A stretch of 64,000 bases of DNA from Acidobacteriota bacterium (GCA_029263415.1 JAJCXN010000058.1:51724-115723), one strand, 5' to 3'. Positions 51,692 through 64,000 are shown, numbered from the stretch's first letter. A program made the numbers and translations. Notes: generated from the sequence alone by a model not told the origin.

Positions 51692-51764
51692 TAATGGATA
51701 GCTCAACTGGTAGAGCACTGAACCAGGGATTCAGCTGTTGCGGGTTCGATTCCTGCTCCAACCG
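51692..51764 (+). pseudogene. Degenerate tRNA-like sequence (tRNA pseudogene or att-site remnant)
   Basis: Canonical D-arm (TAGCTCAACTGGTAGAGCA), a 5-bp anticodon stem, and a T-arm (GCGGG-TTCGATT-CCTGC). However, only 4 of 7 acceptor-stem base pairs form, the anticodon loop CCAGGGA lacks U33, and no CCA is encoded. Confidence 0.4.
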
Positions 51765-57676: not shown

Positions 57677-57719
57677 GGCCGACACCCTTTCCGCCAAAGG
57701 TCATCTACCTTGCAAAGCG

Positions 57720-57930
57720 TCTAACGGACTCTAGTGCCGCGGCACGGCCGAACGGCGCGCGGCAACACTGGAAGCGTCGCAACAGCAACGGATCTCGTGG
57801 CCAGCTGCCCCGGAAAACGGCACCTCTCCGAACGGCCGGTCGCTGCCGAAGAGCCCAGATAGTTGGCCACTGGGAGATCGACACGGTGGTCGGTGCTGCT
57901 GCGTCAACAGAGAGTACAGAGGGCTCATAG
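57720..57930 (+). pseudogene. IS30-family transposase fragment (central DDE-domain entry segment), 5'- and 3'-truncated
   Basis: The translation ...WKRRNSNGSRGQLPRKTAPLRTAGRCRRAQIVGHWEIDTVVG matches the IS30-family consensus ...RG.lP..i.eRP..v..R...GHWEgDli.G. There is no N-terminal HTH region and no downstream catalytic core. Confidence 0.5.
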
Positions 57931-57976: not shown

Positions 57977-58052
57977 GCATAACGGCTGGAATTCAGCGCC
58001 AATGCCGGCCGCGAAGCGGACGGTGGTTGTCCGCCGCAATGATTTGTTAGGC
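57977..58052 (-). repeat. attC-like site H (76 bp)
   Basis: Ends GCATAAC...GTTAGGC. Confidence 0.45.
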
Positions 58053-58467: not shown

Positions 58468-58593
58468 GCCTAACGGACTTAGCTCAGCTGCGCCGCTGGT
58501 TGGCGTGCTTAGCTTGAAATAGCGTTTCCTCATCTCCGACACTATAGTGGATTGCGCAAGCGCGGGCGGTTTCTACTGGGGCGTGTAGATATG
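58468..58593 (-). repeat. attC-like site A (about 126 bp; its 3' core is degenerate)
   Basis: Starts GCCTAAC-GGACTTAGCTCAGCTGCGCCGCTG. The 3' end reads GTGTAGA rather than a clean GTTRRRY. Confidence 0.5.
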
Positions 58594-58600
58594 CAGTCGC

Positions 58601-58908: not shown

Positions 58909-58974
58909 GTACAACGGACACTTAGCTCAGCTGACTGCGCCTTGGCGCCGGACTGCAGCAATTGGTTGTTGGGC
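58909..58974 (-). repeat. attC-like site B (66 bp, short class)
   Basis: Ends GTACAAC...GTTGGGC. Confidence 0.5.
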
Positions 58975-58984
58975 TGCAAACACG

Positions 58985-59245
58985 CTACTTGCGATGAACA
59001 ATCTTGTCGTATTGCCCGTGGGTTCCGATCCAGAACCATAGAAGGGTCTCGGAATCACGGACGGCCAACGAACCGGTAACGCATGCCCACGCGGACAGAC
59101 CAGAATCGACGGACTCTTTCAAGTGCAGTGAGGGATGTCTTGGGTTGGCCTTGAGCAATTCGAAGTCTGCATCTGCGAGCGAGCGCACCGACTCGGGCAA
59201 ACTGTCGTACGACGACCTGAACTCCGCGGTGGCCTGATGGTTCAA
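58985..59245 (-). CDS. Cassette ORF: RelE/StbE-family toxin
   Basis: The C-terminal segment (...LLWFWIGTHGQYDKI) is typical of RelE/YafQ/HigB-type mRNA interferases. Its start overlaps the antitoxin stop; the exact start codon is uncertain. Confidence 0.55.
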   Translation of the reverse strand: MNHQATAEFRSSYDSLPESVRSLADADFELLKANPRHPSLHLKESVDSGLSAWACVTGSLAVRDSETLLWFWIGTHGQYDKIVHRK

Positions 59246-59442
59246 AGAGGTCGGGTATCGCCCCGGCGATGGGCCGCCAAAGCGGTATCGGCGAGCCCAT
59301 CGAGCTTCCCTGCCACTACATCCCGCTCGAACCGCTCGTCCCACGCGAGCGCGTCGAATTCCTGAAACCAGTCGCGAAACCGCGAAAGTTCTCCAGGCCC
59401 CAGATTCTGCACAGCTTGGTCGATCTCTTCGATCCCACTCAT
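59242..59442 (-). CDS. Cassette ORF: small antitoxin-like addiction-module component (66 aa)
   Basis: MSGIEEIDQAVQNLGPGELSRFRDWFQEFDA...; the position and size fit a cognate antitoxin immediately upstream of the toxin. Confidence 0.5.
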   Translation of the reverse strand: MSGIEEIDQAVQNLGPGELSRFRDWFQEFDALAWDERFERDVVAGKLDGLADTALAAHRRGDTRPL

Positions 59443-59473
59443 GCCTCGATCAGACGAGATGACTGGCGCAGCA

Positions 59474-59565
59474 GCCCAACGTCTCGCGATTCTGCTGCGC
59501 CGCCCGCATGCCCGCATGCGTGTACCGACCACTTCTTCGACGTCAGTAGCAATCGTTTGTTGGAT
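59474..59565 (-). repeat. attC-like site K (92 bp)
   Basis: Ends GCCCAAC...GTTGGAT. Its arms are related (AAC..GATT.CT / AGCAATCGTTTGTT). Confidence 0.45.
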
Positions 59566-59707
59566 GGCACGGAGGCAACGCAAACCCAAGTGTTCTAACG
59601 GGGCCTGCATGGGATAATCCTGCACGTCTGGAGCAGCCGCCAGCCGCTCCGCCCAGAACGGGACGGCGGCTGGGTAGAGTGATAACGCCGCTTGCTATGG
59701 TTAGCAC

Positions 59708-60106
59708 ATGATATCGACGATTCGATCGACCTTGCGCAGCATCGGAGCCGTGCTGGCGGGTTTTGCTGTGATCGCACTGGGAACGGTCTTCACCTTCACG
59801 GTTCTGGTTGGCGACTTTGGCTACGCCACGTCCAGTCCAACCGAGCTGGTGATTGGAACTCTCGGCGCCCTGGCCTCCGGCCTCGCGGGCGGACTCGTTG
59901 CAGCCCGGCTCGCGGCAACACATCCGCTGAGGCACGCAGCCGCGCTAGTCGTGCCTATCGCGCTCGACACGGCCAGCATCGTCGCTTCGGCGGGCCAGGA
60001 ATCCGATCCGTTGTGGTTTGACCTCGGCGGCAGCGCGATCCTGCTGCTCGGCGCCTTTGTCGGGGGCTACCTGGTTGTTAAGAGACACCGCGAGCCGGCG
60101 TCCTGA
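59708..60106 (+). CDS. Cassette ORF in reverse orientation: small membrane protein (132 aa, 4 TM)
   Basis: Good hydrophobic periodicity. It is the only protein-like ORF between attC K and attC C. Confidence 0.35.
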   Translation: MISTIRSTLRSIGAVLAGFAVIALGTVFTFTVLVGDFGYATSSPTELVIGTLGALASGLAGGLVAARLAATHPLRHAAALVVPIALDTASIVASAGQESDPLWFDLGGSAILLLGAFVGGYLVVKRHREPAS

Positions 60107-60213: not shown

Positions 60214-60339
60214 ATCTAACGGACTTAGCTCAGCAGCGCCGATGTCGGGCGCGCTGAAGTTGAAAGTGGATGGCACATCTTCAAGAGGATAGCTGAACGC
60301 GCGAGCACGAGCGGCGACTGCTGCCGTGAGTAGTTGGGC
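60214..60339 (-). repeat. attC-like site C (126 bp)
   Basis: Ends ATCTAAC...GTTGGGC. Confidence 0.6.
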
Positions 60340-60656
60340 TGACGCCGAATCGGCGGGCACTCCAATACTGCGGCTTTTCGACTCTGCCTGGCGACCGCAA
60401 CAACTTCCACTTGGCCTTGTCCGAGAAGGCGATACACCAAGGGGTATGGGTACTGGTTGGGAAACACAAACTCGTGACAGCCGGACGGTCCGCGACGGTA
60501 TCTTCCCGGGTGCCTCGAAACCGACACCAGGCCGCGCTCTAAAGCCTGCAGGACACCGCGTGCAGCAGACAAACTGCGTTCCGCGTACCAGTCACGAGCA
60601 TCCGTGGCCTCAGCAAGAGCGGCCGGATGCCAGCGCAACTCACTCGAAGCCATCAA
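60225..60656 (-). CDS. Cassette ORF: ParE-family toxin, with no cognate antitoxin gene adjacent. The ORF reads through into attC C, so the stop has probably been lost.
   Basis: The first 95 aa or so are ParE-like (...CHEFVFPNQYPYPLVYRLLGQGQVEVVAVARQSRK). The last 40 aa or so are encoded by the conserved repeat. Confidence 0.5.
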   Translation of the reverse strand: MMASSELRWHPAALAEATDARDWYAERSLSAARGVLQALERGLVSVSRHPGRYRRGPSGCHEFVFPNQYPYPLVYRLLGQGQVEVVAVARQSRKAAVLECPPIRRQPNYSRQQSPLVLARSAILLKMCHPLSTSARPTSALLS

Positions 60657-60674: not shown

Positions 60675-60775
60675 CGCTGACACAAAGAGAATGTGACGGG
60701 CTTGCCAGTATCCTCAACGACCGACCGCGAAAGAGACTCGGATTTCGAACACCACGGGAGTGCTTTTATGGCTAG
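60675..60775 (+). pseudogene. IS30-family transposase C-terminal fragment
   Basis: ...LTQRECDGLASILNDRPRKRLGFRTPRECF* matches the IS30-family C-terminal consensus LN.RPRK.LG..TP.E.F. It sits where a ParE antitoxin gene would be expected. Confidence 0.5.
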
Positions 60776-60815
60776 CTACCGATGTTGCGCTTCAAACTTG
60801 AAGTCAGACTGCAAC

Positions 60816-61447: not shown

Positions 61448-61530
61448 GCCCAACGGACTTTCATCACTGGCACAAACCGTAGCGAGCGCAGCGCGTGAGG
61501 GTTTGTGTCCAGTGCATGATGTTGTTAGGT
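61448..61530 (-). repeat. attC-like site G (83 bp; central hairpin CACAAACC/GGTTTGTG)
   Basis: Ends GCCCAAC...GTTAGGT. The GNAT stop codon lies within the 3' core. Confidence 0.55.
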
Positions 61531-62019
61531 GCCGCCGGCGCGGATCGCACCGTTAAGAAGAGTTCGACCGTCTTGGAACTCAACCAGCCCGAAGTCACGA
61601 TAGAGATCGAGAGCTGGCACGTTACCTTCGCCGACCTCGACGTACAGGGACTTGCAGTTCCGTTGTTCGCACTCACGGACCACCTTCTCGACCAGGGAGC
61701 GTGCGATTCCTCGGCGCCGAGACTCCGGCCTGACGTATAGGTCGTCGATGTACCCACTGAGCGCTCCATGTTCCATCGTGTAGCGCACAGTAAGTACAGC
61801 ATGCCCGGCAGGTACACCGTCTCGTTCGGCAATCCAAACGCAACCTAGCCCAGCGTCCTCCAACAACCTGACGAAGGAGGCCTTGGCCCATTCGGGGTCG
61901 AGCGCGAACTCCGATTCGGCATAGAAGTCGCGCATGAGGTCGACAAGAGCCGCGACGTCTGTACTCCCAGCTCTCCGAACAGCGAACTCGTTGACCGACA
62001 TGTTCTTTCGCGAACTCAC
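61525..62019 (-). CDS. Cassette ORF: GNAT-family N-acetyltransferase
   Basis: Acetyl-CoA binding motif A is present (YVRPESRRRGIARSLV). Confidence 0.8.
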   Translation of the reverse strand: MSSRKNMSVNEFAVRRAGSTDVAALVDLMRDFYAESEFALDPEWAKASFVRLLEDAGLGCVWIAERDGVPAGHAVLTVRYTMEHGALSGYIDDLYVRPESRRRGIARSLVEKVVRECEQRNCKSLYVEVGEGNVPALDLYRDFGLVEFQDGRTLLNGAIRAGGT

Positions 62020-62024
62020 AAGGA

Positions 62025-62150
62025 ACCTAACGGACTTAGCTCAGCTGCGCCGCTGACAGGCGCGCTGCGGCTGCAATTGAAAAGTGCATCTTCAAAAGGA
62101 TAACCGAACGCGCGAGCACCAGCGGCAACTGCTGCGGCGGATTGTTATGC
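62025..62150 (-). repeat. attC-like site D (126 bp)
   Basis: Ends ACCTAAC...GTTATGC. Confidence 0.6.
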
Positions 62151-62626: not shown

Positions 62627-62752
62627 GCATAACGGACTTAGCTCAGCTGCGCCGTTGACCGGCGCGCTGCGGATGAAACTGAGATCTTCATGTCCAACAG
62701 GTTAGCGGATTGCGCCAGCACGAGCGGTGTCTGCTGCTGCGAGTTGTTGGGC
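62627..62752 (-). repeat. attC-like site E (126 bp)
   Basis: Ends GCATAAC...GTTGGGC. Confidence 0.6.
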
Positions 62753-62768: not shown

Positions 62769-63086
62769 CTACACCCACGCCACAGCGAACGAGAACAGGC
62801 AGAACGAGGCGACGAACACGACTAGCCAAGCGTGATCGGCCGGCCGGAGCCTCTTCCGATAGAGCTCGTAGAGATAGAACGGGAAGCCGGAAAATCCGAC
62901 CAGCAAGAAGAGAAGAAGCGGCACCACCAACCAGCCCCCGGGCCATATCGGAGCCAAGAACGGAGGCGCTTCCCTCCCGACCCTCAACGAGAAGCCGACG
63001 GCGGCCTCGACCCAGCATGCGATGGAGCCCCAGAAAAAGAAGAGCCAGGACAACGACTGATCTTCAAGGTGCTCTTCGCGGCCCAA
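62769..63086 (-). CDS. Cassette ORF: small membrane protein (about 100 aa). The start is uncertain and may lie inside attC F.
   Basis: 2-3 TM helices. It has no ATG. Confidence 0.45.
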   Translation of the reverse strand: MGREEHLEDQSLSWLFFFWGSIACWVEAAVGFSLRVGREAPPFLAPIWPGGWLVVPLLLFLLVGFSGFPFYLYELYRKRLRPADHAWLVVFVASFCLFSFAVAWV

Positions 63087-63206
63087 CGGACTTAGCTCAG
63101 CTGCGCCGCTGACAGGCGCGCTGAAGTTGCAATTGAGTTCTTCATCGACAAAAGACTAGCTGATTGCGCGAGCACCGGCGGCGACTGCTGGGGCGAGTTG
63201 TTGGGC
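63081..63206 (-). repeat. attC-like site F (126 bp)
   Basis: Ends GCCCAAC...GTTGGGC. The heptamers are exact reverse complements. Confidence 0.6.
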
Positions 63207-63211
63207 AGCTT

Positions 63212-63562
63212 CTAGACATCGGCAAGCTCTTGCTTCCGAGGTGGGCGAATGTCTTTCAGGTTGCGCTCAGCACAGGCACCGACACGCCGATAGTTTGCCC
63301 TCGCGGTACTCAGGCTCAGTCCTCCGTTCGGACCACCTCGAACTACGTCGGCCTCGTGTTCATCCTGGCCATCGTCCTCCCAGAAGCAAACCGGACAGAT
63401 CTCGTACGCCGCGCGCTCGTCCAGAGTACGGCACATGCAACAAGGGCACCGAAGGGGCAGATTGCGCGGCGTCTCCTCCAAGCTTGTCGCGTACGCCCTA
63501 AACCAATCTCTACGACGCGCCAGTTCAGCAGCATCCTTCGAATCGCCGCCACGGCTAACCAT
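63212..63562 (-). CDS. Cassette ORF: CPCC-family cysteine-rich protein
   Basis: CPCCMCRTLDERAAYEICPVCFWEDDGQDE matches the CPCC/DUF4262-like small-protein signature. Confidence 0.65.
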   Translation of the reverse strand: MVSRGGDSKDAAELARRRDWFRAYATSLEETPRNLPLRCPCCMCRTLDERAAYEICPVCFWEDDGQDEHEADVVRGGPNGGLSLSTARANYRRVGACAERNLKDIRPPRKQELADV

Positions 63563-64000
63563 GAGCTTGCTGGTGACTGCCCAACTACTTACTCACTTGC
63601 AGGATAACGAACACTCCTGTTTTCGATCACTGCGCCTTTTCCGCAGCGATTACTTTCTCGGCCCGGCTACAAACCGCGCGTCCACCCTTTGGCAGTAGGG
63701 GTTATCGCGTTCTCCGGTATCTTGCCATACCGCACTACACTGCGTGAATCGCAGCGTAGTGTGAGGAGGAAGATCACGCAGTCCTTTCGTTTTCATTATT
63801 CGTCGAGTGGGCTCCGGATACCGGTGGCGCCCAGGCCGGCAACATGGGTGTAGACCATCGTTGAACGAAACCGCTGACGCGGTAGCTCCTGCTTCTCCTC
63901 CTTCTTCCTGACAGTTCCTCGAGCGCTGGCCATAGCGGTGGCGGCTACGGTGGGAGTTTGTCTCGCGCAATGGAGCGCGTTTCAAACGAGAGGAGTCCCA

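Follow-up and report, generated by a model that had tools for sequence, protein, structure and literature searches.

The right-hand 6 kb of the window, the whole 64-kb chromosomal stretch analysed here (60% G+C), carries a cassette array that probably represents the integrase-proximal end of a sedentary chromosomal integron with a decayed integrase gene. On the minus strand, from right to left, the proposed layout would begin with an intI-derived 3' end (tail at 63,864-63,799, stop codons at 63,798-63,793), followed by a unique spacer of ~207 nt with a strong double hairpin, the first cassette boundary (between G and TTGGGC, at 63,585), the CPCC cassette with its 126-nt attC, and then eight or nine cassettes as far as ~57,7xx. 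The integrase relic would thus be co-oriented with the cassettes, an inverted layout that a simple inversion of intI can produce. Such an integrase copy would supply no active recombinase, and hence the array would behave as a CALIN (a cluster of attC sites lacking an integrase), with its cassettes fixed in cis and mobilisable only by an integrase acting in trans. The locus is best classified as CALIN-like, with a relic of intI beside the array, and elements of this kind are known.

Housekeeping genes in the window include those for RodA, PBP2, RNase G, PpiD, ThrA, RuvB and a lipid A acyltransferase, and the genomic context has a proteobacterial look. From run SRR15505518, independent short-read contigs agree with the window over 7.8 kb at 100% identity with no indels, the stretch 63,210-64,000 lying outside their coverage, and the block upstream of the integrase-like tail recurs in the same reading on another NCBI contig; an assembly error is therefore an unlikely source of the in-frame TGA and the odd sequence described below. 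The independent Logan contigs from this run are two in number, short, and both broken at repeats. An exact 50-mer of 63,931-63,980 had no matches among genome contigs or metagenome contigs, and neither had an attC 24-mer of the array.

The array consists of minus-strand cassettes with nine or ten attC sites between 57,7xx and 63,206, and hence has the two or more attC sites in one orientation by which a CALIN is recognised. Its sites, the cassette ORFs with family support and the right-hand boundary are as follows.
57719-57868: attC, doubtful
57977-58052: attC
58468-58594: attC, degenerate core GATATGC
58909-58974: attC
59474-59565: attC
60214-60339: attC
60225-60656, minus strand: ParE-family toxin cassette ORF (Pfam, E = 3e-11)
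61448-61530: attC
61525-62019, minus strand: GNAT cassette ORF (Pfam)
62025-62150: attC
62627-62752: attC
63081-63206: attC of the first cassette, 126 nt, GCCCAAC...GTTGGGC, 127.6 bits to the family profile
63212-63562, minus strand: Cys_rich_CPCC, first cassette ORF, 116 aa (PF14206, E = 8e-27)
63579-63585, minus strand: core site GTTGGGC (plus strand GCCCAAC), first cassette boundary and end of the array

Five of the attC sites, starting at 58468, 60214, 62025, 62627 and 63081, form a family of ~126-nt repeats with 74-81% identity. The copies have YAACGGACTTAGCTCAGC at the start and GTTRRRY at the end, their consensus folds into an imperfect hairpin, and a profile of the family recovers all five members at E <= 1e-33. 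Interspersed with them are four shorter attC sites that are unrelated to the 126-nt family, with RYYYAAC...GTTRRRY ends and hairpin folds of their own. In most cassettes the 7-bp cores on the two flanks are perfect complements (GCATAAC/GTTATGC, ACCTAAC/GTTAGGT, GCCTAAC/GTTAGGC), whereas the two cores within one attC often are not. Complementary cassette-flanking cores are the classical footprint of exchange within the core. Note that this complementarity test is symmetric: it validates cassette boundaries and carries no strand information.

By the same rule, the rightmost cassette boundary falls at 63579-63585, since the core there is perfectly complementary to the R'' core in the first cassette's attC (63200-63206). 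The CPCC ORF starts 16 nt downstream of this boundary core, with its ATG at 63562. The attC-family profile has no match between 63,206 and 64,000. We conclude that the array ends at this core, inside the window, with no continuation to the right.

The cassettes are read from right to left, because all family-supported ORFs lie on the minus strand with an attC after each; cassette ORFs overall are mostly on this strand. The bulge pattern of the attC sites fits the plus strand as bottom strand, although this is not decisive for orientation. According to an earlier reading made from the sequence alone, the cassette ORFs are minus-strand and the array has its integrase-proximal end on the right. 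Both claims hold: the CPCC, GNAT and ParE ORFs are all on the minus strand by Pfam, and integrase-derived sequence is found at the right edge. Cassette functions are unknown or accessory (CPCC, GNAT, ParE toxin, small membrane proteins), with no resistance genes.

The region to the right of the boundary contains the following features.
63586-63792, minus strand: unique spacer of ~207 nt, from the integrase-like stop to the first cassette boundary
63602-63707: GGATAAC...GTTATCG feature of the sequence-only reading; terminal 7-mers only, not an attC-like hairpin
63714-63761: two adjacent hairpins, CCGGTAT...ATACCG(G) and a 12-bp stem CACTACACTGCG / CGCAGCGTAGTG
63793-63798, minus strand: tandem stop codons TAA TGA (plus strand TCATTA at 63793) ending the integrase-like frame
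63799-63864, minus strand: integron-integrase C-terminal tail STMVYTHVAGLGATGIRSPLDE, last 21-22 codons
63865-64000, minus strand: continuation upstream of the tail and off the window, not demonstrably IntI-like
63970-64000, plus strand: ATG-initiated frame MERVSNERSP..., still open at the right edge; GGGAG lies 13 nt upstream

The central observation is the tail. A minus-strand frame reads ...KQELPRQRFRSTMVYTHVAGLGATGIRSPLDE and then TAA TGA at 63798-63793; it carries the catalytic-Tyr motif YTHV and the IntI-typical ending G..G(V/I)RSPLD, so that the C-terminal motif expected of an IntI (..TT.IYTHV.. then G..GV.SPL) is present. An ending of the STMVYTHVAGLGATGIRSPLDE type is the signature C-terminus of integron integrases. 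In a tblastn comparison with IntI1 (a query validated by its score of 799 bits to PRK15417 of NCBIfam), the only significant match in the 64-kb window is 63864..63802 on the minus strand, with an E-value of 2e-4 that is already corrected for the whole 64 kb. The match covers IntI1 residues 308-328, with 13 of 21 identical (62%); the other matches are noise (E ~0.06 or worse), and this search found no resemblance to a tyrosine recombinase elsewhere in the window.

Profile and structure databases point the same way. Against 18,950 NCBIfam models, the tail alone matches only TIGR02249 and PRK15417 (for TIGR02249, 20.1 bits, E = 3e-4, profile positions 294-313 of 315), and a 61-residue fragment likewise matches only these two integron-integrase models, at profile positions 285-313 of 315. 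Among 177,635 PDB sequences the sole match is 2a3v, the Vibrio cholerae integron integrase IntI4/VchIntIA, at residues 288-318 of 320. The match is specific to integron integrases rather than Xer or phage integrases, it ends one residue before the double stop, as in real IntIs, and the tail lies 214 nt from the end of the attC array. Pfam gave no match to the 61-aa fragment, Phage_integrase included. Judged by these similarities, 63,864-63,799 is very probably of IntI origin.

Upstream of the tail the picture is different. Of the 67 codons of the putative gene that lie in the window, only the last 21-22 are recognisable. The IntI-specific additional domain, which the intI_Cterm profile detects, and the N-terminal catalytic residues R and K would fall to the right of 64,000. 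A TGA at 63984-63982 on the minus strand is in frame with the catalytic Tyr, 43 codons upstream of it, and lies 61 codons before the frame's own stop. An HxxR motif (HCAR) is found in the Tyr frame 40 codons before the Tyr, with the TGA three codons before its His, and LPR stands in place of the invariant LLGH histidine motif in an in-frame alignment with 2a3v. An in-frame box II (HxxR...LLGH) was not found in the 45 codons upstream of the tail, so that no single open frame joins an intact box II to the Tyr. Neither the Phage_integrase nor the IntI models align upstream of the tail, and in frameshift-tolerant alignments of the upstream part 54 of 200 shuffled sequences did as well for IntI1 and 9 of 200 for VchIntIA. 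A 'repaired' translation scores 24.2 bits against TIGR02249, compared with 20.1 for the tail by itself and 18.8-22.6 in nine controls with shuffled upstream sequence, a gain over the tail of only ~4 bits. We also considered a frameshifted box II (PHRSRH..ALEELSG..QEL, in three frames, with approximately the right spacing), which was no better than shuffled controls. The upstream part is either decayed beyond recognition or not integrase-derived. In both cases, this integrase copy has no capacity to encode box II of a tyrosine recombinase, and it looks non-functional.

The statement in the sequence-only reading that the window contains no intI thus has to be amended, since the last 21-22 codons of an IntI-type protein lie within it. 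Its choice between an integrase just beyond the edge and a CALIN resolves to something in between: the array is CALIN-like as proposed there, but with a vestigial intI. We detected no intact integrase gene in the 6 kb to the left or the 415 nt to the right of the array, and an intact integrase farther right of 64,000 is possible. The tail and the Pfam-supported cassette ORFs are all on the minus strand, which is the inverted integron-integrase layout, with intI on the cassette strand.

The block that precedes the tail occurs a second time. An exhaustive HMMER scan of the 61-residue fragment against 1.84 billion representative proteins returned one relevant match, a 342-aa protein (P0002) found only in NCBI, on a 37,586-bp contig. 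Its residues 1-38 match window positions 63933..63817 on the minus strand (77% identity, E = 2e-11). The protein starts with MARARGTVRKKEEKQELPRQRFRSTVYTDPDGLEA..., where 24 of 25 residues are identical to 63933-63859; a diverged version of the tail follows, and then unrelated sequence. A separate homologous-protein search with the 61-aa fragment gave no match, and missed P0002 although the two have many 5-mers in common. The C-terminal ~140 residues of P0002 are a widespread polymorphic-toxin domain that elsewhere is fused to RHS, Hint and PT-TG modules. From this match, the block upstream of the tail is conserved or repeated before a different downstream gene, and we infer that the P0002 contig may carry an orthologue or another copy of the dead platform, there joined to a different first cassette. 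The stretch of P0002 that matches the tail reads VYTDPDGL; the string YTDPDGL is reminiscent of the DPxGL junction of RHS proteins. An RHS reading of the P0002 N-terminus as the origin of the block was rejected, as it leaves the IntI-specific ending in the window unexplained.

Several observations weigh against a decayed intI. Only 67 codons of the putative gene are inside the window, and the assignment depends on 21-22 residues and ~20 bits against the HMM, in a region (63,210-64,000) outside the independent Logan contigs. The block is identical in 24 of 25 residues elsewhere while the tail has diverged, a pattern that suits a recombination boundary or a selected element better than uniform neutral decay, which does not fully account for so abrupt a loss of similarity at the tail. 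In addition, neither attI boxes nor a Pc promoter is recognised, and the context looks proteobacterial. In proteobacteria a divergent intI is the norm, and an inverted one is not.

This last point bears on the alternative expected by the sequence-only reading, a canonical divergent intI on the plus strand at or just past the edge, which we consider unlikely. Under this alternative, 63,817-63,999 would be the attI and promoter platform, and the IntI-like sequence on the minus strand would be a relic or a chance resemblance. A plus-strand gene, conceivably intI, could begin at the ATG at 63,970, which has GGGAG upstream and whose frame is still open at the window's end, and the preservation of 63,933-63,817 on another contig before a different gene, that for P0002, is as expected for a platform with a different first cassette; a proteobacterial context also favours a divergent layout. 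However, the ten codons inside the window have no recognisable IntI N-terminal features, and the sole integrase-like signal of the window is on the minus strand, where it starts inside the window rather than beyond its edge. The absence of a long plus-strand ORF from 63,563-64,000, as reported before, is borne out: the plus-strand frames that are open at the edge span 41, 21 and 38 codons. Moreover, the cassette boundary is 385 nt from the ATG at 63,970, whereas the usual distance from intI to the attI crossover point is ~100-200 nt, and no promoter-like sites were found.

In the spacer, 63,586-63,792, no attC is recognised by profile, no L box or direct repeats by eye, and no sigma-70-like promoter on either strand. 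The GTTGGGC core at 63585-63579 acts as a cassette boundary. attI sequences are integrase-specific; an attI, if one survives, would lie within 63,586-63,792. The strongest structure here is the tandem hairpin, 35-80 nt downstream of the integrase-like stop and unique in the window. It combines a near-palindrome at 63,733-63,761, with 12-nt arms that are 92% complementary, and an adjacent hairpin at 63,714-63,732 with a 6-bp stem. The near-palindrome had been noted before at 63,733-63,766 and is real, with a fold far better than shuffles: for the tandem hairpin, z is -3.5 for the plus strand and -5.5 for the minus strand, where the energy is -17.5 kcal/mol, and the RNA fold has a z of -3.7. The tandem hairpin has no T-run and gave no terminator call, and Rfam assigned no family within 63,200-64,000.

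A motif, ACTGCGTGA / TCACGCAGT, occurs three times around the large hairpin (63739-63747, 63750-63756 and 63774-63782), and allows two mutually exclusive pairings, of 63733-63744 with 63750-63761 or of 63739-63747 with 63774-63782. Its role might be that of a repeat bound by a protein, or of part of an alternative fold.

An intact inverted intI of divergent sequence might instead extend to the right, with the 45 odd codons due to an assembly error or an atypical C-terminal domain. The tail with its catalytic-Tyr context is well preserved (62% identity to IntI1), the HCAR motif is in the same frame, and the stretch is outside the independent Logan contigs. We nevertheless regard this as rather improbable, given the in-frame TGA just before the HCAR His, the absence of the LLGH histidine and the failure of the Phage_integrase and IntI HMMs to align with anything before the tail; moreover, the same reading is replicated on another contig, and the rest of the window is free of indel errors in the Logan comparison.

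To a similarly small degree we credit a pure CALIN, in which the 21-residue tail would be a chance match, or the 5' part of a P0002-like gene, with ordinary genes beyond the edge. The match is indeed short, the HMM E-value of 2e-4 concerns one chosen fragment and not the whole six-frame window, and the same block starts a polymorphic-toxin protein elsewhere, with VYTDPDGL at the corresponding residues. Against this, the tblastn E-value holds after correction for the whole window, and the match distinguishes integron integrases from Xer and phage integrases and ends at a stop codon like those of real IntIs. It is also located ~215 nt from the proximal end of the array, and a joint coincidence of this kind is very unlikely.

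The P0002 match raises the further possibility that 63,817-64,000 is a repeated, integrase-less 'landing pad', which would be an attI-like acceptor for cassettes with the integrase supplied in trans. The basis for this is the ~110-nt block, with its 24 of 25 identical residues, before an orphan gene for a polymorphic-toxin C-terminal domain (P0002), and the breakdown of homology exactly at the old integrase tail. We hold it to be a long shot; if true, the vestigial intI 3' end and the hairpin region would together be a duplicated or conserved platform.

Least probable is a continuation of the array off the right edge through further degenerate attC sites, as the sequence-only reading had supposed: GTTGAAC at 63,860 and the 7-mers GGATAAC and GTTATCG are core-like, and 63,579-63,707 (129 nt) has the length of the local attC family, but the attC profile has no match here, the segment does not pair from end to end, shuffled sequences reach the same fold energy, and GTTGAAC lies inside IntI-like codons. 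The hairpin proposed at 63,590-63,705 comes down to the 7-mers GGATAAC (63,602) and GTTATCG (63,701), which are complementary at six of seven positions; these ends are unpaired in the minimum free energy fold, and the plus-strand z-scores against shuffles are -0.15 and -0.6. Similarly, the 'degenerate attC start' at ~63,858 includes GTTGAAC at 63,860, a string that is part of codons R-S-T of the integrase-like tail. Neither candidate has inverted R'' and R' cores that close an imperfect hairpin of ~55-140 nt. The segment 63,579-63,707 was also considered as a decayed 128-nt attC; its left arm is family-like by eye, and the profile and fold tests are against it (no attC-like fold or end-to-end hairpin in 63,580-63,707, plus-strand z of -0.15).

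An array beside a decayed intI has precedents. In the IntegronFinder classification, intI pseudogenes were found near 15 of 279 CALINs (Cury et al. 2016; PMC4889954). As in those cases, the present locus combines at least two cassettes bounded by attC sites with an adjoining intI fragment that can be recognised but is defective; no functional integrase is seen, and the cassettes are of unknown or accessory function rather than resistance genes. It differs in that only the last ~21 codons of intI are recognisable. Integrases in inverted orientation are documented in Treponema and scattered other genomes (PMC4889954, PMC3575428), and the inverted integron-integrase group is attributed to Boucher et al. 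2007 as cited in these two papers. The group is paraphyletic, and in at least one case, the class 1 integron of A. baumannii 1656-2, the inversion is in a normally divergent lineage (PMC4889954). The present locus resembles the inverted integrons of Treponema spp. and others in having the intI frame on the cassette strand with its 3' end toward the first cassette. It differs in that their integrases are intact and in that its host looks proteobacterial, not spirochaetal; by analogy, its inverted layout may be a secondary inversion.

The sedentary chromosomal integrons of Gammaproteobacteria offer another comparison. Like the Vibrio cholerae superintegron with its VCR attC sites, the array is chromosomal, lies among housekeeping genes, and has a homogeneous family of ~126-nt attC sites (74-81% identity), toxin-antitoxin cassettes and complementary cassette-flanking cores. 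In contrast to the superintegron, it is small (~10 cassettes), several of its attC sites are heterogeneous and short, and no intact divergent intI, attI or Pc is recognised in the window.

For annotation, these results fix the proximal end of the array at 63,585 and put the integrase signal on the unexpected strand, where a search limited to a divergent plus-strand intI would misclassify the locus. With a decayed intI, the locus would join the known cases in which an integron platform decays to a CALIN; here the relic of the integrase is inverted and the chromosome probably proteobacterial. Its cassettes (for CPCC, GNAT, ParE toxin and small membrane proteins) are probably immobile as long as no integrase acts in trans. 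Current models of integron function are unchallenged by the locus.

The left part of the array shows some features of its own. In the attC at 58468-58594 the right core is GATATGC instead of GTTRRRY, with loss of the conserved GTT/AAC triplet, and the core complementarity with the neighbouring cassette is broken too; the cassette at this attC is probably immobilised. On the minus strand at 58985-59610, an overlapping pair of genes of 86 and 122 aa has the layout of a toxin-antitoxin module, with no Pfam match to either. Toxin-antitoxin cassettes are typical of sedentary chromosomal integrons. One cassette, flanked by the attC sites at 59474 and 60214, has its only plausible ORF opposite to the array, at 59708-60106 on the plus strand; this ORF encodes a predicted membrane protein of 132 aa and was called in Logan contig L002.

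Within the cassette delimited by the attC sites at 60214 and 61448, the plus-strand translation of 60690-60775 reads ...LNDRPRKRLGFRTPRECFYG. Pfam found no match in the 149-aa ORF around it, and we take LNDRPRKRLGFRTPRECFYG to resemble the C-terminal end of IS30-family transposases, which would suggest an IS remnant within the array. Logan contig L001 breaks at 60784, as expected for a genomic repeat. About 6 kb to the left of the array, 51695-51760 on the plus strand matches a tRNA by Rfam (43.3 bits, model positions 4-67 of 71) and is not called as a tRNA by ARAGORN; it looks like a truncated tRNA or a tRNA pseudogene.
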